Numbered from the stretch's first letter, positions 685 to 25,533 are shown. The stretch: 51,289 nucleotides of DNA from an uncultured Burkholderiales bacterium (GCA_964637145.1 CAZWUN010000005.1:1-51289); one strand, 5' to 3'. Made by a program: numbers and translations. The notes: generated from the letters alone by a model not told the origin.

Positions 685-717
685 GGTCTGTTTCAGACCC
701 GATGGTCTGTTTGGACC
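685..717. promoter_or_regulatory. two adjacent operator-like sites, GGTCTGTTTCAGACC and GGTCTGTTTGGACC, upstream of the Omp85-like gene
   Basis: The first site (685-699) is a perfect 6-3-6 palindrome. The second (704-717) repeats the same left half 19 nt downstream. Both lie in the 189-nt intergenic region before the ATG at 756. Confidence 0.2.
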
Positions 718-755
718 GAAGGGGACCGAGCCCCGGCCTTCGAAAGGGCGCGCCT

Positions 756-1964: not shown

Positions 1965-1970
1965 GCAACT

Positions 1971-3752
1971 TTAGAGCTGCGACGAACTGACCGCTTCCGT
2001 TTGGGCCAGGAGCTCGGCCAGGTGCCGCAAGAGGATCTGGTTGTCCTCTTTCGAGCGCATTCCGATGCGCAGGTAGGAACGGCCGTCCGCGAGCTTTTCG
2101 CTCACGTCCTTGACCAGCAGTCCGCGTTCCAGAAGCCTGCCCTGCAGACTGGGTCCGCGCTGTCGGAGCAGGAGAAAGTTGCCGCCTCCCGGATAGACCT
2201 CTTCGACACCCGGAACCTTTGCCAGGGACAGCGCCAGTTCTGAGCGCTCGCGGGCCACCTGCTCGAAGGAGGCCTGCATGGATTCTCGGTGCTTGAGAAG
2301 AAGCTCCAGGAAGTGCTCGGCCAGGCTGCTCGAGTTCCAGATGGGGAGTCGATCAACCACAAACTTGCGCAAACGTGGGCAATCTGTGTAGAGAAAGCCC
2401 AACCGCAGGCCCGGGGCGCCCAGCGATTTGCCCAGGCTCTTGAGCACAGCTACGTTGGCGAGCGGACTCAGCTCAAGGAGCTCCACCATACCTGTCTGGC
2501 CGGAGAAGTCGAGAAACGACTCGTCCACCAGAAAGAAGCGGTCCGGACGTCTTTGACACAGGGCATAGAGCTCGCGGGTGTCGACCTGGCTGCCGGTGGG
2601 ATTGTTCGGGTTCACCACCACCGCCACCGAGGCCTGGTCGAGATCCGCCTCGATGTCATCGAGGTTGTATCCGACGCGGTCAGCGTAGCAAGGCCCCTTG
2701 AACCAGCGCGGGTACTCGCCAAAGGTCGGCCAAGGTTGGAGAACCTTCTTCCCCTTCCAAAATTCGCTCAGCCACGGAAAGGCTTGCGAGGCTCCGTTCA
2801 GCACGATGACCCGGTCCTGGTCGCAGTGCAACAGGTAGGAAAGCTTTCGATTCAGGGTTGTCTGGCTCGAGCCATAATGGCCGAGAATCGTCTGGAGGTG
2901 GGCCTGCAAGGCCGACCACAAGGCCGGGCTGGGAAAGTAGGGGTTGCGCAGGTAGCAAAAATCCAGCACGGGGTAATTCCAAAGCCCTCCGTGATCGCAT
3001 TGCACGGCTCGAGCCAGGCCCCCCGGCTCGAATCTGGCCCGGGCCAGGGTCAGATCGTTGGGATCGTCGATCTCCGCCCAGCACTCCTCGTGGACCACCT
3101 CGGCGTGAATCACCGCCGAACCCCGCTCGACGATCTTGTCGAGCAGGACTTCATAGCAGGAAGCGAGGTCGTGGTCGGAGTCGTCGGCCGCGAGCACCTG
3201 GCACAATTCGGCCGAGAGGCGATAAAGATTGAGGGTCTTGAAATGGGATGAGAGCACGATCTCGGGGAGCTGCTTATGGGAAGGGAGAAAGCGCCGGATC
3301 CGCTCGCCCTCCAGAGCCACGACCGTTCCATCCATTCCCACCCTGTAGGGGGCCACCAGGGCCACATTGGGATGGGGCGAGCGGTGCAACCGCTGAAACA
3401 CCGTCTCCGAGAAGATCAGGTCGGACTCGATCAAAGCCACCGGATGGTCGAGGGGAATCGCCCGCAGAGCCAGGACGAGGGAAGTGAGGTTGCCGGTCTC
3501 CTGGAAGCGGCCATTCTCCACGACTCGCACGCGCGGATGCCCACGTAACAGGCTCTCTACTTGATTGGCCCGGTAGCCGGTCACCACCACGACCTCCTCG
3601 AAGTCGACGAGACTTGCGAGGATGCGCTCGATCAGACTTTGCCCTCCCACCACGAGCTCGGTCTTGTGTTGCCGGTCGGTCAGGGGACGCAAGCGCGTCC
3701 CTCTCCCGGCGGCCAGGATGATGGCCCTCATGCTCCAGGGGTTCACGGCCAC
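1971..3752 (-). CDS. bifunctional LicC/PntC-like nucleotidyltransferase (N-terminal) and class I/II PLP aminotransferase (C-terminal); resembles the phosphonate cytidylyltransferase-AEP transaminase fusion type
   Basis: N-terminus AIILAAGRGTRLRPLT (GxGxR loop) and WAEIDDPNDL, as in LicC-type cytidylyltransferases. C-terminal half has the NPNNPTG substrate loop and a PLP-lysine context LKSLGKSLGAPGLRLGF. Divergent from a LicD gene and close to pepM. Confidence 0.85.
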   Translation of the reverse strand: MAVNPWSMRAIILAAGRGTRLRPLTDRQHKTELVVGGQSLIERILASLVDFEEVVVVTGYRANQVESLLRGHPRVRVVENGRFQETGNLTSLVLALRAIPLDHPVALIESDLIFSETVFQRLHRSPHPNVALVAPYRVGMDGTVVALEGERIRRFLPSHKQLPEIVLSSHFKTLNLYRLSAELCQVLAADDSDHDLASCYEVLLDKIVERGSAVIHAEVVHEECWAEIDDPNDLTLARARFEPGGLARAVQCDHGGLWNYPVLDFCYLRNPYFPSPALWSALQAHLQTILGHYGSSQTTLNRKLSYLLHCDQDRVIVLNGASQAFPWLSEFWKGKKVLQPWPTFGEYPRWFKGPCYADRVGYNLDDIEADLDQASVAVVVNPNNPTGSQVDTRELYALCQRRPDRFFLVDESFLDFSGQTGMVELLELSPLANVAVLKSLGKSLGAPGLRLGFLYTDCPRLRKFVVDRLPIWNSSSLAEHFLELLLKHRESMQASFEQVARERSELALSLAKVPGVEEVYPGGGNFLLLRQRGPSLQGRLLERGLLVKDVSEKLADGRSYLRIGMRSKEDNQILLRHLAELLAQTEAVSSSQL

Positions 3753-3777
3753 GTGTCAGAACTCTTGCTCTCTGAAA

Positions 3778-4485
3778 ATGCTCTGTCCCGTCACCATGCG
3801 ACCGGTTCGGCCCGGCGCTTCCTACCGGGTGGCCGGTTGCGAGCGGCGCGTTCCCGGACACCTGGTTTTTTCCCGCCCGGCCTTTTTCACGCGTGCCCGG
3901 GTCCTGGATGAGCTGGCTCGACTGCTCGAGCTGGCGGGGAGGCGGCTGGACAAGGCCGGGATTTGCTGGTGGGTTACCCAGGGCACGCTGGTCGGGGCCA
4001 TGCGCCACCAGGGATTCATCCCCTGGGACCACGACGCCGACTTGAACCTGAAGCTCGAGCAGCTCCCGATGCTCCTCGAGCTACAGGCTGAGTTCGGACG
4101 CTCCGGGCTCAGGCTGAAGAAGGCCGCCGGGGGCTACAAGCTCGGCTATGACCGATGGCCTCTGTTTCCCTACCTCGACCTGGTGCCCGTGGCCCGCCGC
4201 CAATCCACCTGGCAGCTGGCCTTCCCCCTGGACGAGGCCGGCCTGCCGACCTTCGGCAAGCACCTTCAGTGGCCCCAGGAGGCCATCCGGGAGCAAGACC
4301 TCTTTCCTCTCGAGCTCGTGCCCTTCGAGGGGTTCGAGGTCTGGGTGCCTGCCCGGGCCCGCGAGGTCGCCCGGCAGATGTACGGGCCCGACTGCCTGGA
4401 GGTCGGTCGCTGCGCACGGTTCCCGTGGCTGGTCAACCACTACTGGGACGCTGTGTTGTTTGCTCTGGGGCTGACGGGAGGCTGA
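3778..4485 (+). CDS. LicD-family phospho(no)transferase
   Basis: Motif WWVTQGTLVGAMRHQGFIPWDHDADLNL matches the LicD signature (GTLLGAxRHxGFIPWDDDxD). Start chosen as the first ATG after the divergent gene start (3778); ATG 3796 is an alternative. Confidence 0.8.
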   Translation: MLCPVTMRPVRPGASYRVAGCERRVPGHLVFSRPAFFTRARVLDELARLLELAGRRLDKAGICWWVTQGTLVGAMRHQGFIPWDHDADLNLKLEQLPMLLELQAEFGRSGLRLKKAAGGYKLGYDRWPLFPYLDLVPVARRQSTWQLAFPLDEAGLPTFGKHLQWPQEAIREQDLFPLELVPFEGFEVWVPARAREVARQMYGPDCLEVGRCARFPWLVNHYWDAVLFALGLTGG

Positions 4486-4488
4486 GAA

Positions 4489-5388
4489 GTGCACGAGCTG
4501 GTCTACACCTGGGTGGATGGCACCGCCGAGGGCTACGCAGAACTCTGTCGCCGTTTTGCCACCAGCCCCGACGACCTCAACCCGGAGCGTTTTCGCGATC
4601 CCTACGAGTTGCTGCGTTACAGCCTGCGTTCAGTGGAGCGCTACCTGCCCTGGATTGAAAGGGTCTTGCTCTTCACCTGCCGGCCCCATGTTCCTCGATG
4701 GCTTTCCTCCGAGGTGACCGTCGTCCACCACGATCAGGTGATCGACCCGCGCTTCTTGCCGACCTTCAACCCCAATGCCATCGAGAGCCACCTGCACCTC
4801 CTTCCCTTCCGAGAGCAGGTCTTTCTCTATGCCAACGACGACTTTCTGTTTGCCGGTCCGGTGGCCCGAGAGGACTTTTTGACGGCTGCAGGACGGTTGC
4901 GAGTGTATGGCACCCTTTTCGGGGAGCGACTGGCCGGCCGGGTCCGGGATCGAACCCAGATTCCCTCCTTTGGCTTCCTGGAGCACACCCCCTATCCGAT
5001 CGACCGCCAACTGTGGACCCAGATGCTGGAGCATTTCGCGAGGGAGGTCGAGGCAACTCGACGGAGCCGCTTCCGCTGCGTGGAGGATCTGAGGATGGAT
5101 CGCCTCTGGCGTCACTATCTCCTGAGCCGTCATCGTTCTCGTTGCTCGCTGGTTTCCGGTTGGGAGGTGGTGCGCGGAGCCGCTTTCCTCAAGCTGCACA
5201 ATCGGGCCCTCCGGCTTCGCAGACAACTGGCCGACGTCCGCAAGCGCTTTCTCTGCTTGAACGACGACCAGGGTCCCGAGCCTGAGCCGGAGGCTGCAAT
5301 CGCGGTCAGGGAGTTCCTCGAGAGGGCCTATCCGCATCCTTCGAGATGGGAGAAGACAGCCATCGGCCGCGAAAATGACGGATCATGA
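4489..5388 (+). CDS. Stealth-family hexose-1-phosphotransferase (capsule/glycan phosphotransferase)
   Basis: Stealth conserved regions are visible: CR1 VYTWVDG, CR2 LRYSLRSVERYLPW, CR3 FNPNAIESHLHLLP...FLYANDDFLF. GTG start lies 3 nt after the LicD stop. Confidence 0.8.
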   Translation: MHELVYTWVDGTAEGYAELCRRFATSPDDLNPERFRDPYELLRYSLRSVERYLPWIERVLLFTCRPHVPRWLSSEVTVVHHDQVIDPRFLPTFNPNAIESHLHLLPFREQVFLYANDDFLFAGPVAREDFLTAAGRLRVYGTLFGERLAGRVRDRTQIPSFGFLEHTPYPIDRQLWTQMLEHFAREVEATRRSRFRCVEDLRMDRLWRHYLLSRHRSRCSLVSGWEVVRGAAFLKLHNRALRLRRQLADVRKRFLCLNDDQGPEPEPEAAIAVREFLERAYPHPSRWEKTAIGRENDGS

Positions 5389-6268
5389 TGGTGTTGGAAC
5401 GCCTCTCCGGGTTGCCCTGGCCAGAGTTTACCCTTCCCAGGGAGGTGCGGCGGTAGAGGCCCGTCAGCCCCGGATGCTGGGTCGGAAAGCGCGCGAAGGG
5501 CTCCACCCAGCGCTCCGAGCGACAGTGGGCCGAGAGCCAGACGTCGTCGACAAAGTAGGCAGCGCGGGGAGCCGTGCTGTAGTCGTGCACCTCCGGACCG
5601 AAATAGCCCGGCTCGACTCGATAGCCCGAAAATCCCTGCAATACATCGATCCTGACCGGCCGTCGCAGGCGGCTACACTTGAGCGGTGTGGGCGGAAGGC
5701 CCGCCAGGTTGCTCCACAGCGTGGTGGGCCGGTCGGTCAGGTCGCCAGGGACCCGCCACCCACTCAGCCCGGTGGCTCGAGTCTTGCAGCCCTCCAGATG
5801 GGCCAGAAAACCGGGCGGGTAGAGCCGATCATCGTCCACCACCACCAGCGGCGTACGCTCGGGGAGATCGAGGGCCGGCAGGAGTTTGGTGGCCGGTCCC
5901 AGGTCAGAGCAGCGCACCAGCTCGACCGAGCGCAGGCGGGCCAGCCACTCCGGGATTCGATAGGAGGTTGCTTCGCGGCGGCTGTGCTCGGGCAGGTGCA
6001 GACGAATGCGCGCTGGCAGTGGATGTTGCGTCAGCAGGCTTCGCAAAGTCCAGTGCAGGTGGGGCAGCCGACTGGGGAGGGAGGTGAGGCAGATGGTGAG
6101 GTCGCCTTTACCAGCCTGTGCCCAGTTCCGGTCAAGCTGTTCGAGGTCGCAACGAGCCAGGCGGGCCAGGTCGAGCAGGTCTCGGATCAGGTCGCCTCCG
6201 GAGAGATGATTGCAGGTCGCCAGGCCGGCCCAGCCGGCCAGGGCGAACGCGGCTAAGCTGCGTTCCAT
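5306..6268 (-). CDS. putative GT-A fold glycosyltransferase
   Basis: Internal ATG at 6268 (MERSLAAF...) avoids overlap with pepM. Motifs [23 protein letters not shown] and [13 protein letters not shown] (DxD-type) are typical of small capsule/LPS glycosyltransferases. The 3' tail overlaps the convergent Stealth gene by 83 nt. Confidence 0.65.
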
Positions 6269-6320
6269 CCGCCCGAGCTTCGGGGCCAGGAGATCTGGTC
6301 CTGGCGCCAAACACCCCGCC

Positions 6321-7895
6321 GTGACCAGGGCACGGAGGTTGCGGCAGATGCTGTCCGGGGGGGGACTGGAGTTCCTGCTGGAAGCCCACAACGCCCTCTC
6401 GGCTCGCATTGCCGAGCAAGCCGGATTTTCCGGCATCTGGGCCAGCGGTCTCACCATGTCGGCCCAGTTCGGGGTGCGGGACTCGAACGAGGCCAGTTGG
6501 AGCCAGGTGGTGGACGCGCTCGAGTTCATGACGGACGCGACCAGTGTGCCGATTCTGCTCGATGGCGATACCGGCTACGGCAACTTCAACAACCTGCGCC
6601 GCCTGGTGAAGAAGCTCGAGCAACGCTCCGTGGCAGGTGTGTGCATCGAGGACAAGCTCTTTCCCAAGTGCAACAGCTTTCTGGGCGAGCGCCAGCCGCT
6701 CTGCGATCTGGAAGAGTTTTGCGGCAAGATCAAAGCCGGCAAGGAAAGCCAGAGCGACCCCGACTTCTGCCTGGTGGCGAGGGTGGAAGCGCTGGTGGCC
6801 GGCCACAGCCTGAGCGAGGCATTGCGGCGAGCTGAAGCCTACCGCCAGGCGGGGGCCGATGCCATCTTGATCCATTCGCGCCGCAGCCAGCCCGATGAGG
6901 TGCTTGCTTTTGCCCGCGAGTGGGCCGGCCGCGGGCCGCTGGTGCTCGTGCCCACCAGCTACTTCAGTACCCCCGCGGAAGTGTTTCGCCGGGCGAACGT
7001 GCAGCTGGTGATCTGGGCCAATCACTTGCTGCGGGCCTCCATCGCGGCCATGCAGTCGGTGGCTCGCCGCCTTAAGGAACAGGAGAGTCCCGTCCAGGTG
7101 GAGGATGAGATCGCCCCGCTGGCTGAAGTGTTCCGACTGCAGGGCGCTGACGAGCTGATGGCCGCCGAGCAGCTCTATCAGGGGCGCTCTCTGGGAGCCG
7201 TCGTGCTGGCCGCCACTCGAGGGGACTTGAACGGACTGACCTGCCACCGCCCCAAAGGGATGATCCCGATCGCCGGCAAGCCCCTCCTGAGCTGGACGGT
7301 GGACTCGCTCAAGGCCCTGGGCGTTCATCCCATCACGGTGGTGGCCGGCTGGCAGGCCGAAGCCGTCGATCTCCCCGGAGTCGAGCGGGTGGTGAACGAC
7401 CAGTACGAGTCCTGCGGGGAGCTGGGCTCGTTGGCTAGCGCCGCGGATGCCCTGCAGGGCGACGTCCTGGTTCTCTATGGCGATCTGTTGATGCGTGGCT
7501 ACATTCTGCGCGAGCTGGCCGAGAGCGAGGCCGAGGTGACGGTGGTGGTCGACTCCGACCTGGGGGGACGCCGCAAGACCGGGCAGCAGGACTTCGCCCG
7601 CTGCGATCAGGGCGATGACCGGGCCGTGTTTCAGCCCCGTGTGGCCCTGGTCGGCATTTCCCAGCTCCCTGAGGGTGCCCACGGGCGCTTTATCGGGGCG
7701 GCTCGCTTTCGAGGGGAGGGCGTGAGCTGGCTGCGCCAGGCTCTGGCTGAACTTCCCCACCAGCAGAGCGTGCCCGATCTGTTGAATTATCTGGTCGCTC
7801 GGGGCTACCCCGTGCGAGTTCTCTATATTCACGGCCATTGGGTGGATGTCAATACGGTCGAAGATCTCCCTTCGGCAGGTAGCTTCATCGCGTGA
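6321..7895 (+). CDS. pepM: phosphoenolpyruvate mutase (PepM) fused to a C-terminal nucleotidyltransferase-like domain
   Basis: PepM hallmarks: [35 protein letters not shown] and the diagnostic [11 protein letters not shown]. The C-terminal ~230 aa has a nucleotidyltransferase fold pattern ([30 protein letters not shown]). Start is GTG 6321 or ATG 6348; upstream ORF codons overlap the divergent gene. Confidence 0.9.
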
Positions 7896-8085
7896 AATAG
7901 GCCTTCGGCCAGAGGCGGAAGCCCGTCCGTCCGGTTGGATGAGGCGACGCGGGCCCCAGGTGAAGGTCGCCCTCGAGGCTCATTCAGTAACAGTCGAGGA
8001 GAAACTCTTCCTCTCCCAGAACCGGTTCGTACGGCATGCGAAGTGATCACTCGGTGGCCCGCGACCCGTCTCGCAGACCCAATCC

Positions 8086-8617
8086 ATGAGGTTTTCGATC
8101 CTTATCTGCTCACTCGAGCATCGCCAGGCGCTACTCGAGCGCCTTCTGGCGTGTTTGCCCGCAGAGCCCGGAGTGGAGGTTCTGGTTGGGTGGGAGAGAA
8201 GCGTAACAGGTTGCTCGAGCGCTCGACAGGAGACTGGGTGGCCTTCGTAGACGATGACGACCGTGTGGCCCCGGATTACGTTTCGCGCATCCTGAAAGCT
8301 CTAGAGCAGGCGCCTGACTGTGTGGGAATCGAGGGGGTCAGACCACGAACGGTCGAGGCCCTCGACGTTTTGTGCACTCCATGCAGTACCTGGATTGGTT
8401 TGAGCGCGATGGGGTATATTACCGCTGCCCCAATCACCTCAACCCGGTGCGCCGCTCTCTCGCGATTCGGGCGGGGTTTCCGGCCAGGTCGTTCAGGGAG
8501 GACCTCGACTACTCCCTGGCGCTCCGGCCACTGCTTAGGAGCGAGGTCTTTCTGGAAGGACCGGTCTACTTCTATGAATTCTGCGCCAAGAAGCGCGGAA
8601 TCTTTGGCCTGTGGTGA
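8086..8617 (+). pseudogene. family-2-type glycosyltransferase disrupted by two frameshifts
   Basis: Three consecutive frames each carry one collinear piece of a small GT2. MRFSILICSLEHRQALLERLLACLPAEPGVEVLV starts at ATG 8086 (stop at about 8250). VGEKRNRLLERSTGDWVAFVDDDDRVAPDYVSRILKALEQAPDCVGIEG is in the 7935 frame. QTTNGRGPRRFVHSMQYLDWFERDGVYYRCPNHLNPVRR... runs to stop 8617 in the 8372 frame. Shifts are near 8190-8200 and at the G5 run near 8333-8337. Confidence 0.6.
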
Positions 8618-10146
8618 AGCTCATCAGCTTCAGTCTGTGGGGTAGGCAGCCCCGCTATCTGGTTGGAGCGGTCGAGAACATTCGACTGGCTCGCAAATTC
8701 TACCCTGGCTGGGTCTGCCGCTTCTATTGCTCTGCCGACGTGCCGATCGCTTTGCTTCTCGAGGAGGGGGCCGAGGTTCGTCGCGAGGTGGCCCTGGGAC
8801 CCTATCATGGGCTCTTTTGGCGCTTCTTTCCGGCCAGCGAGCCGGGTGTGAAGCGTTTTCTCGTTCGGGACGCTGATTCGCGGCTCTCACAGCGGGAGGC
8901 TCAGGCCGTCCAGGAATGGGAGGTTTCCGGGAAGCAGTTGCACGTTCTGCGAGACCATCCGTTGCACGACCGTCGGGACTCTCCCATCTTAGCCGGGATG
9001 TGGGGCGGTGTTGGGGGGCTCGTGCCTGACATGCGTGCAATGGTGCGGACCTGGGGGAGATTTGATCACAGGTTCTGTGACCAGGAATTCTTGGCTCGTC
9101 ACCTCTGGCCCCGATTCAAGCGGGAGTGCCTGCAGCACAACGGTTCGCCCTCCTCCTATTGGGGGGGAGGATTTGAGCTCCCTCCCGCCGAGCAGGATCA
9201 CATCGGATTCGCCGTGCTTGATCCCGAGCCCCTCGTAGACCATCCCACCACTACGGCACCCGAGCCGCCGTTCCTTACCCTGCTCGCGATTCCTAAGCCG
9301 TTTGAGGGTCACATCGGAGTGATTCAGGAGAACGCCTTGCAGAGCTGGACGCGTCTTTCCCCCCGCCCAGACATTGTGCTAATCGGTGACGAGCCTGGCA
9401 CCGCCGAGGCTGCCAAGCAATTCGGGGCTATCCACGTGCCCGAAGTGGCTCGTAACGAGTGGGGTACCCCTCTTTATCACGACGTGCTCATGAGGGGACA
9501 GCAAGCCGCCAGAACGGAGCTCGTCTGCCACGTCAACGCTGACATTCTGCTCCTGGACGACCTCTGCCAGGCGGCTCAGAAAGTCCGCTCCTACTTCAGC
9601 CGCTTTCTGATGCTTGGGAAACGGACTGACATCGAGCTTTCGCACCGGCTGGACTTCGATTCACCCGACTGGCGTAAGGAGGTGCACCGAGAGGTTGCCC
9701 GGGGCGACCCGGGCAGCGTTACCGGCGTGGAATTTTTCCTTTTTCCTCGCTGGCTACTGGTGGACCCGCCCGGCTTCGCGATCGGGCGTTTCTTTCACGA
9801 TAGTTGGCCGATCGTCACTTGCCGCGAGCGCGGCATTCCGGTCGTGGATGCCACGGAGGTTGTGACCGTGGCCCACCAGAAGCACGGCTACAGCCATGTA
9901 TCCGCCCCCAATAGAGACTTGCCTTACCTCGAGATCCTCCAACTTCCCGAGGACGGGGCCAATTTCAGGTTGTTGGGAGGGGAGGGTCGCCGATTCTCAA
10001 TCCGTCACTCGACCCATCGTCTAACCGCTCGGGGCCTTGTGAAGGGTTTCAGTCTGCCGTTTGCGATGTCGTGCTGGGCCAACCGGTGGAGGTGCTGGGA
10101 ACGGGAGCTCGAGAGACGGATCACCAGGATCTGGCGCGGACGGTAG
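8611..10146 (+). CDS. two-domain putative glycosyltransferase
   Basis: GTG start overlaps the stop of the upstream pseudogene (GTGGTGA). N-terminal half has SLWG...YPGW and a DxD-like VRDADSR plus ILAGMWGG. C-terminal half (IPKPFEGHIGVIQENALQSW..., NADILLLDD) resembles a second GT-A-like module. Family not named with certainty. Confidence 0.6.
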   Translation: MVKLISFSLWGRQPRYLVGAVENIRLARKFYPGWVCRFYCSADVPIALLLEEGAEVRREVALGPYHGLFWRFFPASEPGVKRFLVRDADSRLSQREAQAVQEWEVSGKQLHVLRDHPLHDRRDSPILAGMWGGVGGLVPDMRAMVRTWGRFDHRFCDQEFLARHLWPRFKRECLQHNGSPSSYWGGGFELPPAEQDHIGFAVLDPEPLVDHPTTTAPEPPFLTLLAIPKPFEGHIGVIQENALQSWTRLSPRPDIVLIGDEPGTAEAAKQFGAIHVPEVARNEWGTPLYHDVLMRGQQAARTELVCHVNADILLLDDLCQAAQKVRSYFSRFLMLGKRTDIELSHRLDFDSPDWRKEVHREVARGDPGSVTGVEFFLFPRWLLVDPPGFAIGRFFHDSWPIVTCRERGIPVVDATEVVTVAHQKHGYSHVSAPNRDLPYLEILQLPEDGANFRLLGGEGRRFSIRHSTHRLTARGLVKGFSLPFAMSCWANRWRCWERELERRITRIWRGR

Positions 10147-10208
10147 ACCTGCCCGGAATTCGGGCCTGCAGAGTGTAAGGCCAGAGGCCTTGCACTTCCA
10201 AATGAAAA

Positions 10209-10234
10209 GGGCCCTCCGCTCGAGCGGAGGGCCC
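10209..10234 (-). terminator. rho-independent terminator (perfect 26-nt palindrome), probably bidirectional
   Basis: GGGCCCTCCGC-TCGA-GCGGAGGGCCC forms an 11-bp stem. On the minus strand it is followed by TTTTCATTT, directly downstream of the minus-strand lipoprotein gene and between convergent genes. Confidence 0.65.
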
Positions 10235-10255
10235 GCGTGCGACGCAGTCCGATGA

Positions 10256-11884: not shown

Positions 11885-11980
11885 AGTAGAATCCCTCCCT
11901 TACGGTAAAGCGCTGGAGCTTCGGAGAGTGGATGAAAATCCCCTGCAGGGGTCCATTCTGGCGCGACCGAAGCCCGCCCA

Positions 11981-12997: not shown

Positions 12998-13077
12998 AGA
13001 TCGTTCAGGTGTCCTTGCGATTTTCCGAGCCCGGGGAGTTTAAACGGGCTTCGTCTTGAGGGCTACGAGCCCGAGGT

Positions 13078-13899
13078 TCACGAGCGGATCGGAAGGTCGC
13101 CCCTGGATTTTGAGCCGCGCAGCCGCCAGGCCAGCACGTCCAGCGCGCGGTGCAAGCAGTAGAATGCCCGCACCAGCGGGTCGGCGGCCAGAGGGATGAG
13201 GTTGCTGACCTTATTGCGCGTGCGCAGGAAGGGCACGGGCCCGGCCGAGCTGATGTCGAGGGCGTCGCGGGTCAGGGTCACCAATCCGCGCTCCTGGGCA
13301 TCGTAGAGCAAGAGGCTCAGCAGGGCCTGCTCGAACTGGTGCACTGCCAGTCGGGCGCCCGGTGGGCTCTGGATGCGCGCATCCAGAGCCCAGTTTTTCC
13401 AACGCGCCGTCAGGGCTCGAACCCATTCGCGCCGGCCGTCGAAGGCGCAGACCCCGCTGGCCCGGGTGCGAAGGCGGGCCAGTTCGGGGTTCACTCCCGT
13501 GAGAGCCAGCGCCGTGGGAAGCACCCGGATGGGGCCGCCGCCTCCAAACGGGGTGTAGAGGCCTGTCCGCTCCAGTTCGTGCTCGATCCGGTCGAGCGGG
13601 CTCAGCACCACAGTGGCTGCGTCCAGCCACAGCACAGGCCCTCGGGTCTGGCTGACCAGGTCGGCCACGATGATGGGTTTCCAGGCGTAGGTGCCCCGTT
13701 CGAGCCGCACGTACGCCGGATAATGTCGGAAGGGAAAATTCCACAACTCGTGGCGTTTCTCGAGCCATTGGCGCTGGTCCGTTGTCAAGCCAAGATCATA
13801 GAGCACAAGAGGGTAGGAGCGGCCAAGCCGCTCCAGGCTGAGCAAGAACTGGCGAAGCGAGCGATAATAGACCCGGTCGGCCCCCGAGACGATCAGCAC
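13078..13899 (-). CDS. nucleotide-diphospho-sugar-transferase-like protein (family uncertain)
   Basis: GTG start overlaps the upstream stop by 7 nt. LIVSGADRVYYRSLRQFLLSL, YAWKPIIVADL and VLWLDAATVV resemble small GT-A-like / DUF1647-type transferases. It is the last gene of the minus-strand operon. Confidence 0.5.
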   Translation of the reverse strand: MLIVSGADRVYYRSLRQFLLSLERLGRSYPLVLYDLGLTTDQRQWLEKRHELWNFPFRHYPAYVRLERGTYAWKPIIVADLVSQTRGPVLWLDAATVVLSPLDRIEHELERTGLYTPFGGGGPIRVLPTALALTGVNPELARLRTRASGVCAFDGRREWVRALTARWKNWALDARIQSPPGARLAVHQFEQALLSLLLYDAQERGLVTLTRDALDISSAGPVPFLRTRNKVSNLIPLAADPLVRAFYCLHRALDVLAWRLRGSKSRGDLPIRS

Positions 13900-14561
13900 A
13901 GGCTGGGATGGAGGCGTTGAGCCCGGGCCAGCTGTTTAGCGTCGTCGATTTCGGCCCACAGCAGGTCCTGCACCAACGGGCAAGCGATGGGGTTGGAAGG
14001 AGCGCAGCCGACCAACCCGTCGCACTCATAGTGCTGGCCCGGCTGGCACAGAAGCTTTCCATAGAGCTCCTGGCTCACGCGCGAGATCCCCACCAGTTCG
14101 CCGGTCACGTTGCTCAATTGGTTCCGGTCTTTGGACATGGATACCAGCCAGCCGTCGCGCGACTCAACCCAGACTTCATCGCCCGCCCCGGTGGGGCCTG
14201 ACAGAAGCACCGCATCGGGATGAGGGTTCGCCAGCAAGACCTCGAGCGCTCGCACTTCGTAGATCAGATCCGACTCGAGCAGCAGGAAGTCGCTGGTCAA
14301 GAGCTCTCGCGCCGCCGCCAGGCTCTGCAGGCTGCCCGTTCTCGCATAGTCGGCATTGTGAACCAGGCGCACCCCCTCCAGCTCCTGGTAAAAGGAGGCA
14401 AGATGTCCCGTGACCACCACCACGTCGCTGATACCGACCGAGCGGAGTCGTTGCAATGATTCCGCCACGATAGGCCGCTCCCCCAGGCGCAAGAATCCCT
14501 TGGGGTGGGGGAGAGGGCCGAGTCGAGTTCCCTGTCCGGCAGCCAGGATGCAGGCCATCAT
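13893..14561 (-). CDS. LicC-like nucleotidyl (cytidylyl) transferase
   Basis: ACILAAGQGTRLGPL (GxGxR loop), VVVTGH, and LWAEIDDAKQL (WxEID motif of LicC/PntC-type enzymes). ATGA overlap with the upstream ABC gene. Confidence 0.8.
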   Translation of the reverse strand: MMACILAAGQGTRLGPLPHPKGFLRLGERPIVAESLQRLRSVGISDVVVVTGHLASFYQELEGVRLVHNADYARTGSLQSLAAARELLTSDFLLLESDLIYEVRALEVLLANPHPDAVLLSGPTGAGDEVWVESRDGWLVSMSKDRNQLSNVTGELVGISRVSQELYGKLLCQPGQHYECDGLVGCAPSNPIACPLVQDLLWAEIDDAKQLARAQRLHPSLC

Positions 14562-16345
14562 GGCAGTCGAGCCAGCTCCTGGAACTGAGGACTGGAGAGG
14601 AGCAGCTCCTGGTAGGTGCCTCGAGCTTCCACCTGGCCCTCGTTGAGCAGGTAGATCTGATCACAGGCCTGCACCGTCGAAAGTCGATGGGCGATGACCA
14701 GCAGTGTCTTGGAATGGGCCAGTTCGGCCAGGGCTTCCAGGAACCAGCGCTCGGTCTGGTTGTCAAGAGCGCTGGTGGCTTCGTCCAGGATCAACAGCTC
14801 GGGCTCGTGGTAGAGGGCGCGGGCGATGCCGATGCGCTGGCGCTCGCCCCCGCTCAGAGCCACTCCGCGCTCACCTACAAGCGTGTCGTAGCCTTCGGGA
14901 CGACTGGCGATGAAGCCGTGCAGGTGGGCTGCCCGTGCAGCCCGCTCGACGGCCTGCTCGTCGATCTCCTCGTCGGGCACCCCGAGAGCAATGTTGCGAC
15001 GAAGCGTATCGTCGGTCAGGTAGATTTCCTGGGGGACATAGCCGATGCTCTGGTGCCAGCGCGTGAGGTCCTGGGGGCTCAGCGGTTGCCCATCGATGAG
15101 CAAGCGGCCCTGTCCCGGCGTCAGCAGCCCGGCCACCAGGTCGGCCACGGTGGTCTTGCCCGAGCCGGTTCGCCCTACCAGCGCTACGGAGCTGTTGCGA
15201 GGGATCGTCAGCTCGAGCCCGCGCACGGCGGGTTCAGTCGCGCCCGGATAGGTGAATTCAACCCGGCGAAGTTCGATGGCTCGGTTGAAGGGCAGGGGGG
15301 GGCCGCCTTCGTCGGGCACCGGAGGCTCGGGGTCGGTCAGTTCCGAATAGATCTCTTCCACCAGGGGCAGCCGGAACTGCAGATCCACCAGGTCCTCGTA
15401 GAGGCACTGCAGACACGGCACGAGCCGCCAGGCGGCCATGACGTAGGCCCCAACCAGGGGCAGGGCGGCTCGACTTGTGTGGGTGATACACAGGTAGACG
15501 AGCACTGTCACGATGGCGGCCAGGGCCAGAATCTCTGTGCAGGGGCGGGAGATCTCGCCAAGCGTCAGTCGCTTCAAGCGCAGCTCGGTCTCACGGTCGA
15601 AGGCGCGTCGGTAGCTCTCCAGGAAGTGACGCCGGCGCGGCAACGCCTTGGCCTCGCGCAGGGCCGATAGGCTTTCCATCGCGATCCTGGTGCGCCGGTG
15701 GCCGGCCTCGTGGCACTCTTTTCCGAGACGTTCCATCTGTCGGTTGAAGAAGCTGTAGATGGCCACGAACAGCAAGCTCAAGGCCACGCCGGTGGTCAGA
15801 GCCACCCGATAGTCGAGCCACAGAAGCCCGGCACAGAGAAAGAGCGAGGTCATCGCCCGCATAGTCATGGTGGCCAGCGTGCGCACCACTCTGTGGACCA
15901 GGTCATCGACCTGGTGCAGCACGATTCGTGTCAGTCGGCTTGTGTTCTGGCCCAGGTGCCAAACGTGAGGGCGGTGCAGGTAACGGCGTAGCAGGCCGAG
16001 CGAGAGGTCGGAGCTGACCTCCGTGGTCAACCGATAGGTGAACCACCAGGTCAGCGTATTGACCAGAGTGGTCAGGGTGAACAGGAGTAAAAACAGGATG
16101 CCGAGCAGGGCAAAGAAGGCCTCGAAACTCGTGCATCCAGACCAGGCATAGAGGCGACTCAGGGTCGGGTTTTGCTGCACCAGGGCGGGATCGGCGGCCA
16201 CGGCCAGCAAGGGCACGAGGCCGGCTACTCCTGACAGCTCGGTAGCAGCGTTGACCAGGGTGCACAGGCAAAGAGCCAGGGCTTTGCGACGCGCGACAGG
16301 CGAAAGGAGGGCCCTTACCTTCCTGAATGCTACAAGCACAGCCAT
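14558..16345 (-). CDS. ABC exporter, fused permease and ATPase (MsbA/type I exporter-like)
   Basis: N-terminal six-TM region. Walker A GRTGSGKTT, signature LSGGERQRIGIARAL, Walker B LLILDEATSALD, H-loop AHRLST. Confidence 0.9.
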   Translation of the reverse strand: MAVLVAFRKVRALLSPVARRKALALCLCTLVNAATELSGVAGLVPLLAVAADPALVQQNPTLSRLYAWSGCTSFEAFFALLGILFLLLFTLTTLVNTLTWWFTYRLTTEVSSDLSLGLLRRYLHRPHVWHLGQNTSRLTRIVLHQVDDLVHRVVRTLATMTMRAMTSLFLCAGLLWLDYRVALTTGVALSLLFVAIYSFFNRQMERLGKECHEAGHRRTRIAMESLSALREAKALPRRRHFLESYRRAFDRETELRLKRLTLGEISRPCTEILALAAIVTVLVYLCITHTSRAALPLVGAYVMAAWRLVPCLQCLYEDLVDLQFRLPLVEEIYSELTDPEPPVPDEGGPPLPFNRAIELRRVEFTYPGATEPAVRGLELTIPRNSSVALVGRTGSGKTTVADLVAGLLTPGQGRLLIDGQPLSPQDLTRWHQSIGYVPQEIYLTDDTLRRNIALGVPDEEIDEQAVERAARAAHLHGFIASRPEGYDTLVGERGVALSGGERQRIGIARALYHEPELLILDEATSALDNQTERWFLEALAELAHSKTLLVIAHRLSTVQACDQIYLLNEGQVEARGTYQELLLSSPQFQELARLP

Positions 16346-16386
16346 GACCGCGCCGGGTTCGACGCGGGCCGTGCGATTCCGCCTCG

Positions 16387-16989
16387 TCAGGCTCGCTGGC
16401 GGACGAAGTAGCCGGTGGCCCGGTCGCGAACCGCGTCCGAGCCGAGGTAGCCATAGTGGTGCTCGAGAAGCTCACGGGGGCGGGCCGGTAGCCAGGTCTG
16501 CTGGCCCAGAAAGCTCGCGCTCTGGAGCGGGAAGACGTATTCGCAAGGAATCTTGGAGCGCTCGCCGGGAAAGGTTCCTCGCTCGAGGGGGAGGAGCCAG
16601 CCCTGCTCGGCTCGGTAGAAGTAGAGGTCCGCCTCCCATCCGTCCCACTCGATGTAGAGCTTGGGGCCGAGGTGTCGGGCGCTGGTATCGTGGAGCCGCC
16701 AGCCCGGAGGAAGGTGAGAGGCAGCGGCTTTCACGCGGTGATAGTCCGATTCGCAAAGCCCGAAGTCGACATCCACGTCGCCTCGAATGATCTGGCCTTC
16801 TCGATGATGGCCGAGTAAGGTGCCGAAGGCCAGCCAGTAGTCCACCCGGACCTCGCTCAGGAAAGCGTTGGTGGTGACGAAAAGCCGGTCCAACCGCCGG
16901 GCCACCACCTCGCGGTGTCTCGTTCCGAGTACAAGGGGGTTGTAGCGGACGTGGCGCCAGAGCAGCCTGGCGGTGCGAGGCAACTGCAT
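16387..16989 (-). CDS. LicD-family transferase (divergent second copy)
   Basis: YWLAFGTLLGHHREGQIIRGDVDVDFGL matches the LicD GTLLG...DxDxD core. The ATG overlaps the upstream stop (TAATG). Confidence 0.75.
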   Translation of the reverse strand: MQLPRTARLLWRHVRYNPLVLGTRHREVVARRLDRLFVTTNAFLSEVRVDYWLAFGTLLGHHREGQIIRGDVDVDFGLCESDYHRVKAAASHLPPGWRLHDTSARHLGPKLYIEWDGWEADLYFYRAEQGWLLPLERGTFPGERSKIPCEYVFPLQSASFLGQQTWLPARPRELLEHHYGYLGSDAVRDRATGYFVRQRA

Positions 16990-17723
16990 TATACCCGGTA
17001 GTGGTAGGTCTTGCCTGGCTCGCGTTCACAGTCCTGGGGATAGCTCTTGCGCTTGGCGGCGAAGTACTCCTCGCGCCGGTCCCCCTCGCGCCTCAGGCCG
17101 TAGGTGATGTAGAGGATTCGCCGGGCCTGGGTGCTGTCATTGGGTCCCGATCGGTGGGGCACGAACGAGTCGAAGAACGTGGTGTCGCCTGGTGCCGCTT
17201 CCAGGGATTGAAAGCGAAGCCCCAATTCTCCCAGGGGCTCGTGCATCGGACCGAGCAATCCTTCGCGGTGGCGGCCCGGGACGACTTCCAGGCACCCATT
17301 GTCCCGCGTGGCCCGGTCGATGGCCACCATGGCCGTCAGGTGGATGGAGCCCCAGGCGTCCCAGCCGGCCTGCACATCCTGGTGAGCCGCAAAGCCATCT
17401 CCGCCGGGCAGCTTGAAGTTCAGCTTGTCTTTGAACAAGACCATGTCTTCACCCATGAGCTGCTCTGCGGTTTGGCGCAGCACCCCCGCGCAGAGATCGT
17501 GCAGGCCGGAGTGATAGGGAAGAAAATTCTCGGCCCGGCAGAGCAGGCGTCGGTCGGGATCGGCTCGATGGGGTTCGTAATAGAGCATCCACTTGCCCGG
17601 GGTCTCGGGCCAGCTCTCCAAATCGCAGACCCATTCTCGCAGAGGCGCGGCGGGCAGAAAGCCCGGCAGGTGGAGGTAGCCGTCCTGTCGGTATCGCTCC
17701 ACTTGCTCAGGTGTCAGGTTCAC
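16989..17723 (-). CDS. PhyH-family Fe(II)/2-oxoglutarate dioxygenase
   Basis: YRQDGYLHLPGFL N-terminal motif. HxD in FAAHQDVQ and distal His in FVPHRSGPN. Start set at in-frame GTG 17723 (VNLTPEQ...), because the upstream codons of the ORF overlap the PAP2 gene in another frame. Confidence 0.8.
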   Translation of the reverse strand: MNLTPEQVERYRQDGYLHLPGFLPAAPLREWVCDLESWPETPGKWMLYYEPHRADPDRRLLCRAENFLPYHSGLHDLCAGVLRQTAEQLMGEDMVLFKDKLNFKLPGGDGFAAHQDVQAGWDAWGSIHLTAMVAIDRATRDNGCLEVVPGRHREGLLGPMHEPLGELGLRFQSLEAAPGDTTFFDSFVPHRSGPNDSTQARRILYITYGLRREGDRREEYFAAKRKSYPQDCEREPGKTYHYRV

Positions 17724-18579
17724 GGCCAGAGATTTTGGGGCCGGCTGTCTTTTCCTGTATACGCTGATAGAGCGTTGGCCCGGCCAGGGCCCAGGCCAGC
17801 GCCACCGCCCAGCCTGCCAGCACGTCCACCATGTAGTGCAGCCGCCCATAGACCGTGGCCAGAGCGATCGACAGGGCCAGAAAACAGTAGAGCCAGCGCC
17901 AACCTGGGTGGTAGCGCCAGGCGGCCAGGGCCGCGGCGCTGGAGAAGGCCACATGCGTTGAGGGGAAGGCCCCTCCGTCCACTGCTCCGTTGCTGGTCAG
18001 GGCATGGCACAGGCTCCAAAAGATGCCCTGGCAGGCGGGGTCGAGCGGGGGCCAGAGCGGGCGAGGGCCCTGAACCGGAAAGAACATCACCACCAGGTAG
18101 CAGCTGTAGATGGTGGCCAGGCCGGTGAAGGTCGCCTGTTCGGCCGCTTGCGTCTGGCCGAGCTGGCGCAGCCGCAAGACCAGGATGGGCATGAACACGT
18201 AGTAGAGCAGATAGCACATGTGCAGCCACTCCGACAACAGTCGGTAGGGGAGAACCTGGCTCAGCCAGGCGGCGGGAGATGGGCCTAGCAGGCGCGTCTC
18301 CCAGGCCAGCACGGTGGCGTCATAGTAGACCCCGGAAAGGATCCGGTTGAGCACCTCCAACTCGCTGTAGATGGGGATCAGCAGAACAAAGGGATAAAGG
18401 CGGGCCAGCCAGCCCGCGCCCAGCCTGGGGATCAGCAGGATGACCGCCACGTGCCAGAGGATGCGGAGAACCAGTTCCCCCGAGGTGTGCCCGGCGGGGG
18501 GATGGGAAAGGCCCAGGACGAGGAACGCGGCCGTCAGCCCCAGGTAGAAACGCACCAGGGTATCGACCGGTCCGGTCAC
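17707..18579 (-). CDS. PAP2_3 (Aur1/inositol-phosphorylceramide-synthase-like) integral membrane enzyme
   Basis: Multi-TM protein with FPSTHVAFS and GRLHYMVDVLAG (PSxH ... RxxHxxxD phosphatase/phosphotransferase motifs). GTG 18579 lies 1 nt after the upstream stop; the ORF-track start 18627 is the alternative. Confidence 0.75.
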   Translation of the reverse strand: MTGPVDTLVRFYLGLTAAFLVLGLSHPPAGHTSGELVLRILWHVAVILLIPRLGAGWLARLYPFVLLIPIYSELEVLNRILSGVYYDATVLAWETRLLGPSPAAWLSQVLPYRLLSEWLHMCYLLYYVFMPILVLRLRQLGQTQAAEQATFTGLATIYSCYLVVMFFPVQGPRPLWPPLDPACQGIFWSLCHALTSNGAVDGGAFPSTHVAFSSAAALAAWRYHPGWRWLYCFLALSIALATVYGRLHYMVDVLAGWAVALAWALAGPTLYQRIQEKTAGPKISGREPDT

Positions 18580-18580
18580 C

Positions 18581-19615
18581 CTACTGCCACACCAGCCAGA
18601 AAGGGTCGTGGTGGATGCGTCGGGCATCGATCAGCACCAGGTCTTCCTCCACCACCAGATGGTGCAATCCGTCCCGGTAGGGGCTGTCCTTGCGTGGCTC
18701 CAGCTTGAGCACCGGCACTTCGTGAAAGGTCTCGGGGGTCAACTCGAGCACCTCCTGGACAATGACCGCATCGCCATAGCTTCTCGAACAGTCCTGGGCG
18801 GGACGATACAGCCGACCGTCCAGGCGGAAAGGCTTGCCGGCGGCCCGAGTGGAGCGAATGTCTTGCTTGAGTGGGTCCAGAGCATGGGCTTCAAATGGCC
18901 CCAGCGGGGAGGGAGCGTGCGCCGCGTGGAGTCGGTAGGCACCGTGCTGACTGGGACCTGTGTAGAGGAGCCACCAGAGTCCCTGGTGCTCGAACAGCAC
19001 CGGGTCCACCACCTCCACGTTCTCCAGCAGCACCCGCTCGAGATGGAGGCCATCGTGCAGGCGGTAAAGCTTGAGTCGCCGCTCGGCCAGGCTCTCGGGC
19101 AGGCAGTAAGTCTGGTCCTGCCAGGTGAACAGGTAGGGAAACGAGTGGTGCGCTCCCTCCAGGCGTGGAATGCGTCCTCCCTGCTCGGTGCTCTCCACCA
19201 GACGCGCGGGTTTGCCGTGACGATGCTCTTCCACCAGGAGGTGCCAGCCGCCGTTGTGGCGGAAGGCGAAGGGGTCAGCCTCGTAAGTGAGCGGGCCGGG
19301 CTCGGGACGCCAGTGCCAGTCGAGCGTGAGCAGCTCGTTCAGCCTCTGCAGACGGTGCCGGGCGTAGCCCACAGCCCAGATGTCACAGGTAAATGCATCG
19401 CGATAGAATTTCTCGAGCCGTCTTCGGACCTGGATGACAGCCGTACGCAGGCGCTGGGGCCAGCTCAGGGTGAGCTGGGGGAGCGGACCTTGAAACTGGC
19501 CGGCCGCCCGACGCAGCGTGCCCCGGTAACTCCAGTCGGGACGAAACCAGGCTTCGAATCCATCCTCGCGCACTACCCGGATGGGCTGGCCCCGCCAGTA
19601 ATCCTGGATGGTCAA
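18581..19615 (-). CDS. conserved hypothetical, probably beta-propeller-like (GH43-like fold suspected)
   Basis: Long aromatic-rich beta-type sequence (WAVGYA, EADPFAF, WHLLVEE, FPYLFTW, GLWWLLYTG, YGDAVIVQEV). A TTG at 19615 overlaps the upstream TGA (TTGA); upstream in-frame starts are possible. Family assignment is from memory only. Confidence 0.55.
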   Translation of the reverse strand: MTIQDYWRGQPIRVVREDGFEAWFRPDWSYRGTLRRAAGQFQGPLPQLTLSWPQRLRTAVIQVRRRLEKFYRDAFTCDIWAVGYARHRLQRLNELLTLDWHWRPEPGPLTYEADPFAFRHNGGWHLLVEEHRHGKPARLVESTEQGGRIPRLEGAHHSFPYLFTWQDQTYCLPESLAERRLKLYRLHDGLHLERVLLENVEVVDPVLFEHQGLWWLLYTGPSQHGAYRLHAAHAPSPLGPFEAHALDPLKQDIRSTRAAGKPFRLDGRLYRPAQDCSRSYGDAVIVQEVLELTPETFHEVPVLKLEPRKDSPYRDGLHHLVVEEDLVLIDARRIHHDPFWLVWQ

Positions 19616-20679
19616 GACCGCTCCAAGAGACGGTAGGTCTTCTCGCGACGGCCGCCCAGGGCGGCGATCATGGCCTGCATGGGGCGGTTGTCCGCCAGCA
19701 CCCAGGAGGCCTCCAGGCGCTCCCACGGGATGCGGGTATCAAGTTGGGTGAGGGCGTGAACGAGGGCACCGGCCACGTCGAGCTGGCGCGCCCGACGTAC
19801 CACCCCGATGGCATAGAGGCGATAGTTGCGAATCCAGCTGCGGCGGGTCAGGTAGTCGTAGAGCAGCCGCAGGGTCAGTCGCCCCTGGCAGCGTTCCAGC
19901 ATCGGGTTGAGGTCGGGCAGGGTAATGAGGGCTCCTACCGTGGAGCCTTCCCGCTGTGCGAACAGCACCGTCTCGGGTCGAATCAAGAGCAGGCTGAGCA
20001 CCACGAACTCGCGCATCATGGGTTCATCGAACTCTTCGAAGCCCCAGTTGTCGGCCAGCGCGTCGTTGAAGACACTGGCCAGCAAGCGGGTATCTCGCAC
20101 TCGATGCCAGGGGTCCATCGAGCGCACTGTCACGCCTTGCTCGGAAGCTCGACGCGCCCGTCCCTGCATCAGATCCTGCCGGAATTGGCCGCGCTGAAAG
20201 CTGTAGGTGTGCATTTCCTGCAGGCTACGAAAGCCGGCCTGCTCGAGCAAGTCGGCGTAGTAGGGCGGATGATAGGCCAGTAGAAAGCTGGGCGGGGTGT
20301 CGAAGCCATCCACCAGGAGGCCCGGGTAAGGGTCTTCCTGACGAAAGTGGTAGGGGCCCCTGAGGGGCAGTCCGGGAAAGGTTCTGCAGGCCTGCTCCAG
20401 GAGCCGCTCCAGAGCCCTGAGCTGGCCGGGCAGGCATTCCAAAAAGCCGAAGTGGAGGGCCTGTCGGTGGCGTTTGACGCCCAGGTGAGCCACCGGCTGA
20501 TCGTCTTGCCAGGCCACGAAGAAGGCACGCTCCGGGTCGTCGAGCCTGCCCATCAGTTGTCGATAGTGCTGCCAGAGCGGGGGCACCCAGGCCGAATGGC
20601 GGGCCGGGTAAATGGCTCGCGCGAGGCTCCAGAAAGCCAGACGCTCTCGTTCGGTGCGCACGCGGGTGATGCGGGTCAA
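19612..20679 (-). CDS. GNAT-family N-acyltransferase with N-terminal accessory domain
   Basis: C-terminal half has a GNAT-like pattern (LYAIGVVRRARQLDVAGALVHAL ... SWVLADNRPMQAMIAALGG). YHPPYYADLLEQAGF is typical of this two-lobed GNAT group. Confidence 0.65.
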   Translation of the reverse strand: MTRITRVRTERERLAFWSLARAIYPARHSAWVPPLWQHYRQLMGRLDDPERAFFVAWQDDQPVAHLGVKRHRQALHFGFLECLPGQLRALERLLEQACRTFPGLPLRGPYHFRQEDPYPGLLVDGFDTPPSFLLAYHPPYYADLLEQAGFRSLQEMHTYSFQRGQFRQDLMQGRARRASEQGVTVRSMDPWHRVRDTRLLASVFNDALADNWGFEEFDEPMMREFVVLSLLLIRPETVLFAQREGSTVGALITLPDLNPMLERCQGRLTLRLLYDYLTRRSWIRNYRLYAIGVVRRARQLDVAGALVHALTQLDTRIPWERLEASWVLADNRPMQAMIAALGGRREKTYRLLERS

Positions 20680-21646: not shown

Positions 21647-21727
21647 GCTCGGCTTGATTTCGATTCAAGCGTTCCCGGTCCTTCTTTTCCGGTTTCCTTC
21701 AGGCAGGCCGGTTAGTCTGATGTCAGA

Positions 21728-25454: not shown

Positions 25455-25533
25455 AGCCTGATTATCCCGTCAGGAACTGAAAGAAGCCTGACGAGCGTGC
25501 TCGCCAGGCTTCTCGGTCGCGTTCGAGCGAAGA

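Follow-up and report, generated by a model that had tools for sequence, protein, structure and literature searches.

How does a phosphoenolpyruvate (PEP) mutase sustain phosphonate synthesis when no phosphonopyruvate decarboxylase (Ppd) is encoded around it? The question is raised by a stretch of 51,289 nucleotides, here called the window, that constitutes an entire contig (C5) of a metagenome-assembled genome (MAG) deposited as an uncultured Burkholderiales bacterium (GCA_964637145.1, CAZWUN010000005.1:1-51289) and that carries, at 1971-20679, a gene island centred on a PEP mutase (PepM). The MAG (G000) comprises 5.63 Mb in 567 contigs and is 66% complete with 2.4% contamination; the name attached to a near-identical protein of a second genome (G003) places the host lineage in Candidatus Xenobia, an uncultured class. 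Open reading frames (ORFs) of the window were scanned with Pfam and NCBIfam, some also with PDB structure and atlas searches, and 41 genomes (G000 and 40 relatives) were searched for the pathway genes, a PepM match being counted as strong at E 1e-88 or better. We consider it quite probable that the island acts together with a Ppd encoded outside it to make a phosphonate of the 2-aminoethylphosphonate (AEP) type, and that a protein fusing a nucleotidyltransferase (NT) to a pyridoxal phosphate (PLP) domain at one end of the island belongs to a separate module.

PEP mutase and the decarboxylase outside the island

The identity of PepM (6210-7895, plus strand) is unambiguous, and the enzyme is intact. 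It scores 373.4 bits against TIGR02320 (cut-off 319.55) and 394 bits against the Mytilus PEP mutase 1M1B, and ten residues beginning at residue 147 fit the motif EDKxxxxxNS, which distinguishes PEP mutases from the remaining enzymes of the isocitrate-lyase family. An earlier note on this DNA had reported a PEP mutase bearing EDKxFPKxNS, and that description is borne out. The enzyme is the sole PepM detected in the assembly and carries a C-terminal NTP_transf_3 nucleotidyltransferase domain (PepM-NT), a fusion that is common among PEP mutases, being present in 33% of these proteins (PMC6697681).

The earlier note had also stated that the window holds no thiamine diphosphate (ThDP) enzyme, and this proved correct. 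A six-frame search of the whole assembly with PF02775 gave three hits, none of them on C5, and the four matches of a loose GDG...N regular expression in the six frames of the window fell in no ThDP-type protein. Hits to 2-hydroxyacid dehydrogenases (2-Hacid_dh, VlpB type), HMGL-like enzymes (FrbC/RhiG type) and iron-dependent alcohol dehydrogenases (Fe-ADH, PhpC/FomC type) were likewise found only on contigs other than C5. Of the two explanations offered in that note, a ppd gene lying elsewhere or a fused aminotransferase drawing off phosphonopyruvate (PnPy) directly, the first was upheld by a check set beforehand, a profile search of the whole assembly with TIGR03297, which returned one strong match, on contig C455 (3,886 bp), of 290-295 bits over model positions 3-358 of 360. 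The ORF, with a GC content at third codon positions (GC3) of 0.85, lies at 1927-3129 of this contig (locus L006, plus strand) and the called gene at about 2092-3129, encoding 345 residues from M56. Its ThDP motif GDGALLMR...LLDN and the sequence AANEG, which contains the NEG glutamate (the catalytic one of the PYR domain), are conserved in four members of the genus, and the models for the beta and alpha subunits of sulfopyruvate decarboxylase match it at no more than 126 and 55 bits. Outside the genus, identity to the nearest homologues is 47-53%, and all named ones are annotated as phosphonopyruvate decarboxylase. Within the genus, dN/dS values of 0.16-0.34 indicate that Ppd is under purifying selection. 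The C455 protein is intact and is predicted to be a canonical ThDP-dependent phosphonopyruvate decarboxylase. By the refuting condition that the earlier note had set, a ppd elsewhere in the genome, the pathway is an ordinary split one with its canonical thermodynamic pull, and a PEP mutase seemingly deprived of that pull ceases to be puzzling.

The association of the two genes extends across relatives. A Ppd homologue occurs in every genome with a strong PepM match (12 of 12). In the congeners G002, G003 and G004, ppd lies divergent from the same crtI-family gene as on C455 (Ppd 61-87% and CrtI 85-97% identical), and pepM-NT (73-79% identical) is found on a separate contig from ppd; G000 and these three, the pepM-positive members of the genus, all have ppd in this place next to crtI. 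Because this crtI-ppd synteny recurs in congeners with pepM elsewhere, the split is a property of the genus and not an artefact of binning. In the sister genera g4, g2 and g10, ppd adjoins pepM within about 2 kb; genomes with the two genes adjacent are G005, G007, G019, G023, G031, G033, G035 and G040, the order in G007 being ppd, a stand-alone NT gene and pepM-NT, and across the taxonomic order only these three, ppd, NT and pepM-NT, form a conserved core.

Further evidence comes from G001, a genome of the same genus that is 90% complete and lacks pepM. There, Omp85 is found directly beside a GINT1-like gene and the same kinase that borders the island in the window, i.e., the island is gone (locus L119, G001:C32, about 7600-8030). 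At its crtI locus (L120, G001:C111, 12699-16364), the flanks retain 92% nucleotide identity and the segment corresponding to 2141-3200 of L006, about 1,060 bp that make up the body of ppd, is missing. G001 is thus a clean case of the co-loss of coupled but unlinked genes, the island and ppd. Synteny, phyletic pattern and co-loss all indicate that C455 belongs to this genome and that its Ppd is tied to PepM. The neighbourhood of ppd in the genus consists of two crtI-family genes, a methyltransferase, a K+ transporter and unassigned genes, with no aminotransferase among them. In every genus member examined, a gene for 349 residues (L006:975-2024, minus strand, equivalent to L031:5722-6771; GC3 0.90), with no Pfam or NCBIfam match, sits between crtI and ppd and is divergent from ppd.

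The nucleotidyltransferase-PLP fusion at 1971-3752

The first gene of the island (1971-3752, minus strand) encodes an NTP_transf_3 domain (PF12804) followed by an Aminotran_1_2 domain (PF00155). It had been described as a PntC-like nucleotidyltransferase-aminotransferase fusion. The two-domain architecture stands, whereas an assignment to the type in which PntC is joined to an AEP transaminase (AEPT) does not: the PLP domain is of class I/II and CobD/HisC-like, and Tde1415 (6PD1), which matches the fusion through the NT domain only, does so at 38 bits, as against 117 bits for a second NT protein of the island. The PLP domain scores 177.5 bits against TIGR01140 (CobD) and 129.5 bits against hisC, a margin of 48 bits that is only suggestive of a decarboxylase, and the CobD score lies below the equivalog cut-off (177 versus 290 bits). 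Its closest solved structures, 6OUX, 3FKD and 1LC5, are all of the threonine/serine-phosphate decarboxylase type, 6OUX being the serine-phosphate decarboxylase SMUL_1544; models and structures of the aspartate-aminotransferase type match weakly, at about E 1e-5 to 1e-8. In an alignment of 24 family members, the PLP lysine, K442, does not vary, nor do several arginines, and alignments with the solved structures confirmed homology and the PLP lysine. To our knowledge, there is no reliable residue for telling decarboxylase from aminotransferase in PLP domains of this kind.

The fusion is present in the island of G000 and of the closest metagenomic contig (L036), is reduced to a 3' remnant of 49 residues in G003, is absent from G004 and has lost residues 191-426 (about 236 codons) in G002. 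All three of these congeners keep pepM-NT and ppd despite the broken or lost fusion, and G003 and G004 are 97% complete. In genus g4, a fusion that is 42-43% identical lies beside a LicD2-like gene on a contig other than that of pepM and ppd.

These observations bear upon the second explanation mentioned above, a route bypassing Ppd, along which the fused aminotransferase would take phosphonopyruvate to phosphonoalanine and the surface phosphonate would not be AEP. A window that contains a PF00155 domain and no ThDP enzyme lends itself to such a reading, and a published rule, by which PF00155 without a nearby Ppd denotes a PalB-like enzyme and phosphonoalanine (PnAla), would class it so (PMC8942020). 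An intact Ppd under selection exists in the genome, however, and was lost together with pepM in G001, the PLP domain fits CobD/HisC while its matches to enzymes of the aspartate-aminotransferase type (PalB/PnaA) fall in the weak range given above, and several congeners retain pepM but do without an intact fusion. The route is consequently very improbable, and the case illustrates how rules based on a window or neighbourhood can misclassify split pathways.

The family to which the fusion belongs is large and well conserved: over 1,100 proteins from many phyla match it at E below 1e-20. A survey of 80 genomic loci, with up to 10 kb on either side and full flanks in 40, found pepM near the fusion in three (two of the 40 with full flanks), while homologues of an S-adenosylmethionine (SAM) methyltransferase, of LicD and of a related ABC exporter occurred in 31, 24 and 16 of the 80 loci, respectively. 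An Abditibacteriota locus consists of ABC, GT25, methyltransferase, LicD, fusion and GT2 genes with no pepM, and in a Microcoleus locus the fusion is followed by a methyltransferase. Since the family is widespread and usually accompanied by the SAM methyltransferase and LicD in the absence of pepM, the likely substrate is a phosphate ester, for instance phosphoserine or phosphothreonine, and not 2-amino-4-phosphonobutyrate. A class-I SAM methyltransferase is usually the direct neighbour of the pepM-less homologues (L037:7754-11788, L038:10001-12603 and some 31 loci among L039-L118), and LicD is often nearby too. The PDB matches of these methyltransferases are to generic class-I methyltransferases, with phosphoethanolamine N-methyltransferases appearing among the weak hits only.

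Judged from domain similarity and gene neighbourhood, the fusion and LicD probably form a self-contained head-group module that is independent of pepM and happens to be located in the island. Its most likely chemistry would be the decarboxylation of a phospho-amino acid, e.g., phosphoserine, followed by CDP activation of the resulting amino-alcohol phosphate for use by the neighbouring LicD protein.

Head group and amination step

Two genes of the island point to the nature of the head group. The stand-alone NT protein encoded at 13893-14561 (minus strand) matches Tde1415 (6PD1) at 117 bits (E 7e-33) over residues 3-215, which span the whole PntC domain, and conserves the equivalents of Glu104 and Glu196 (Tde1415 numbering), the residues that contact the AEP amine (PMC6697681). 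The NT domain fused to PepM gave no match to 6PD1 at E 1e-5 or better. Furthermore, a homologue of 13893-14561 separates ppd from pepM in G007 and immediately precedes pepM in G040. This protein is the best candidate for PntC (CTP:AEP cytidylyltransferase). The second gene (16989-17954, minus strand) encodes a PhyH-family Fe/2-oxoglutarate dioxygenase (PF05721, 85 bits) that resembles PhnY*, with 189 bits against the model for methylphosphonate hydroxylases of the PhnY* type (NF052437, cut-off 500), and that probably hydroxylates the phosphonate at C1. Because a PntC-like match and a PhnY*-like dioxygenase occur together, AEP or 1-hydroxy-AEP is favoured as the head group. As listed, the dioxygenase ORF shares about 250 nt with the PAP2 ORF on the same strand; the match to the PhyH family begins at residue 77-88, and the true start is probably internal to the listed ORF.

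In the pathway that we propose, the PepM domain would form phosphonopyruvate from PEP, and the ThDP-dependent Ppd encoded on C455 would convert it to phosphonoacetaldehyde, supplying the thermodynamic pull. A putative amination would then yield AEP, which the PhnY*-like dioxygenase would probably hydroxylate, and the PntC-like protein, perhaps along with the NT domain fused to PepM, would make the CMP conjugate. A LicD protein would move the head group onto a glycan or glycolipid that the glycosyltransferases and the Stealth protein assemble, and the ABC transporter would flip or export the product.

Several observations weigh against this pathway. At 294.6 bits, the C455 Ppd falls just below the curated cut-off of TIGR03297 (312.5 bits), and it has a short N-terminus before GVPCS and a low-complexity linker insert. 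The MAG is incomplete, as stated above, and C455 measures only 3.9 kb. The amination step presents a further difficulty. A class-V AEP transaminase was not found in G000, G002, G003 or G004: in G000, which is 66% complete, nothing reached E 1e-5 with TIGR02326, and matches in G002-G004, two of which (G003 and G004) are 97% complete, were weak, at E 3e-5 or worse. PF00266 gave no hit on any contig carrying pepM or ppd in G000, G003, G004, G007 and G033, none of the relatives examined has a class-V AEPT close to either gene, and the only good TIGR02326-like matches (about 240 bits) belong to genus g4, where they lie far from pepM. With no class-V transaminase found, AEP as the product is argued for only by the PntC-like and PhnY*-like enzymes.

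A class-III aminotransferase group (about 309 bits) occurs in G002, G003 and G004 and was found neither in the pepM-less G001 nor in G000. Its co-variation with pepM makes it a weak lead for the amination enzyme, its cluster being unrelated in appearance: the G003 copy lies between genes of the benzoate-CoA-ligase family and of HMG-CoA-reductase-like type, and a PEP-synthase-like gene follows at a distance of two ORFs. This copy (L124:6085-7446, G003:C19) is a class-III omega-aminotransferase by NF004718, with a weaker match to the model for the hydroxy-AEP ammonia-lyase PbfA.

The failure to find a class-V AEPT in the genus also invites the view that the fusion is itself the missing amination enzyme, its CobD/HisC-like PLP domain forming AEP by transamination of phosphonoacetaldehyde (PnAA) or by decarboxylation of phosphonoalanine and its NT domain then making CMP-AEP, as an analogue of Tde1415 with a PLP domain of another class. 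HisC and CobD enzymes use phosphorylated substrates, and phosphonoalanine resembles phosphoserine without the bridging oxygen, which, with the location of the fusion in the island of both G000 and L036, speaks for this view. So does a locus of an uncultured bacterium (L073:8012-11866), in which genes for a VlpB-like 2-hydroxyacid dehydrogenase, a stand-alone PepM and the fusion are consecutive and no Ppd was detected in the fetched flanks; this possible phosphonolactate-branch context is the sole one hinting that the fusion could act on a phosphonate. We nevertheless regard amination by the fusion as unlikely. G003 and G004 retain pepM-NT and ppd, and G003 also the PntC-like gene, without an intact fusion, and the G002 copy carries its large internal deletion. 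The g4 copy accompanies LicD away from the pepM/ppd contig, and in 77 of the 80 family loci no pepM was found in the fetched flanks. In L055, moreover, the fusion lies near a complete triad of PepM-NT, Ppd and class-V aminotransferase, and thus replaces neither Ppd nor the transaminase there.

Alternatively, the phosphonate might never be aminated, and phosphonoacetaldehyde might be reduced, oxidized or used directly, e.g., as hydroxyethylphosphonate, before CMP activation and transfer. The failure to find a dedicated AEPT in four genus genomes and an order-wide core limited to ppd, NT and pepM-NT are in agreement with this scheme, and hydroxyethylphosphonate conjugates on exopolysaccharide provide a precedent (PMC8942020). 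However, no Fe-ADH of the PhpC or FomC type is encoded in the window, the PntC-like enzyme retains both of the glutamates that contact the AEP amine, and the PhnY*-like dioxygenase that is present is typical of AEP or hydroxy-AEP pathways (PMC8942020), all of which makes a non-amino phosphonate rather improbable. AEP or its hydroxylated form remains the favoured head group.

A broader proposal is offered tentatively. Through the NT-CobD-like family, phosphoserine may be turned without a kinase into CDP-ethanolamine for surface head groups, or into CDP-choline where the methyltransferase is present, and the usual neighbours of the family fit such a role; separately, Xenobia may make an AEP-type phosphonate without a class-V AEP transaminase, which would imply a non-canonical amination enzyme. 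In the literature, no paper was found on a kinase-free route from phosphoserine through phosphoethanolamine and phosphocholine to the CDP derivative.

Island layout and comparison with known systems

The island is a variable locus for decoration of the surface glycan or cell envelope, situated between Omp85 (339-1964, plus strand) and a Ser/Thr kinase (20717-21646), beyond which lie well-conserved genes of housekeeping type. Gene content between Omp85 and the kinase is different in each of five genus genomes, and GC3 is 0.71-0.84 in most island genes versus 0.85-0.89 in the stretch 20717-25469, which holds the kinase and the next two genes. Varying content and lowered GC3 are typical of variable surface-glycan loci. 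Pfam and NCBIfam placed LicD, Stealth, glycosyltransferase and ABC exporter genes where the earlier note had put them, and the gene set as a whole supports its view of the island as a locus for phosphonate tailoring of a surface glycan or lipid.

On the left, the fusion is followed by the first LicD-family phospho-head-group transferase (3622-4485, plus strand; PF04991, 72 bits), which is 74-82% identical to the G002 and G003 copies; the L036 homologue has 229 residues, and the true start is probably near 3796. A Stealth-family hexose-1-phosphate transferase (4489-5388, plus strand) has CR2, CR3 and CR4 regions that all score above their cut-offs. It is succeeded by a GT2-like (GT-A) glycosyltransferase (5306-6268, minus strand) that has no Pfam match and was recognized through atlas GT2 clusters (0.97-0.98); its 81% identity to G003 is restricted to residues 88-403, a DDD motif is visible, and the part of the listed ORF upstream of 6268, antisense to pepM, is spurious. 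To the right of pepM are a GT2 glycosyltransferase (7935-8645, plus strand; PF00535), which by synteny is not in G003, and a 511-residue protein of no family (8611-10146, plus strand; GC3 0.71) that has no Pfam match or L033 homologue and is absent from G003. A Gly/Ala-rich protein of no family (10256-11884, minus strand) lacks a Pfam match and has a hydrophobic N-terminus that may be a signal peptide; it is 83% identical to G003, versus 62% for the ORF on the opposite strand. The next gene (11981-12997, plus strand) encodes a weakly supported GT4-like glycosyltransferase, with PF13579 and PF13439 both below cut-off and 83% identity to G003.

The remainder of the island is a minus-strand operon running from 20679 to 13078 with overlapping gene ends. 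It begins with a GNAT-like N-acyltransferase (19612-20679; weak PF00583, atlas GNAT clusters 0.97, 88% identity to G003), a GINT1_N-domain protein (18581-19726; PF24793, 99.6 bits) and a PAP2-superfamily membrane protein (17707-18627; PAP2_3 and PAP2_C, four hydrophobic segments). The PhyH dioxygenase and a second LicD-family transferase (16387-16989; PF04991, 43 bits; 81-88% identity in G002 and G003) follow, and then come an ABC exporter or flippase with fused transmembrane and nucleotide-binding domains (14558-16345; PF00664 and PF00005), the PntC candidate and, as the end gene, a DUF1647-like protein (13078-13899; PF07801, 25.9 bits) that is conserved in G003 and L036. The atlas search of the island ORFs without a family thus yielded the GT2-like and GNAT-like proteins, neither of which is a phosphonate enzyme. 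Outside the island, an 825-residue protein (22977-25454) has a YidD-like domain at its N-terminus joined to a peptidase domain of the clostripain (C11) family and shows 94% conservation in G003, and the region from 26 to 51 kb contains unrelated genes, including those for an esterase, a BrxD/helicase module, a VIT protein, an RNase J-like protein and a spermidine synthase.

Among characterized enzymes, the threonine/serine O-phosphate decarboxylases of cobamide biosynthesis, CobD and 6OUX, provide the best-scoring model and structures for the PLP domain of the fusion, which differs from them in being joined to a nucleotidyltransferase and in lying in a glycan island instead of a cobamide operon. 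FrbH carries an N-terminal cytidylyltransferase followed by a CobD-like PLP decarboxylase half, and the fusion shares this architecture, with PF12804 preceding a CobD-like class I/II PLP domain that has its catalytic lysine. In FR-900098 biosynthesis, FrbH acts as a cytidylyltransferase on a phosphonate (PMC6697681); the locus described here has no other FR-900098 gene, and no FrbC-type HMGL-like enzyme is encoded in the window. Tde1415 (6PD1) is the characterized PntC-AEPT fusion, with a class-V, PhnW-like transaminase domain (PMC6697681). The fusion at 1971-3752 has the same order of an N-terminal PF12804 and a PLP domain, but the latter is of class I/II and CobD-like and the NT half shows no more than distant similarity (38 bits), whereas 13893-14561 is a clear homologue of the PntC half.

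The system as a whole is a further case of a known kind of phosphonyl tailoring, and it documents phosphonate tailoring of the surface for Candidatus Xenobia, an uncultured class, together with an unusually clean instance of two unlinked genes being lost jointly. Its nearest counterparts are the Pnt clusters of Treponema denticola, Olsenella uli and Atopobium rimae (Rice et al., 2019; PMC6697681), with which it shares a PepM fused to PF12804, an additional PntC-like cytidylyltransferase, LicD-type transferases and glycosyltransferases, as well as the logic of a pathway leading from PEP through PnPy, PnAA, AEP and CMP-AEP to the surface. It departs from them in that ppd lies apart from pepM on another contig, beside genes for carotenoids, the searches for an AEPT of class V found none, PntC is not fused to an AEPT and the island additionally holds Stealth, a PhnY*-like dioxygenase, PAP2, GINT1_N and a second head-group module.

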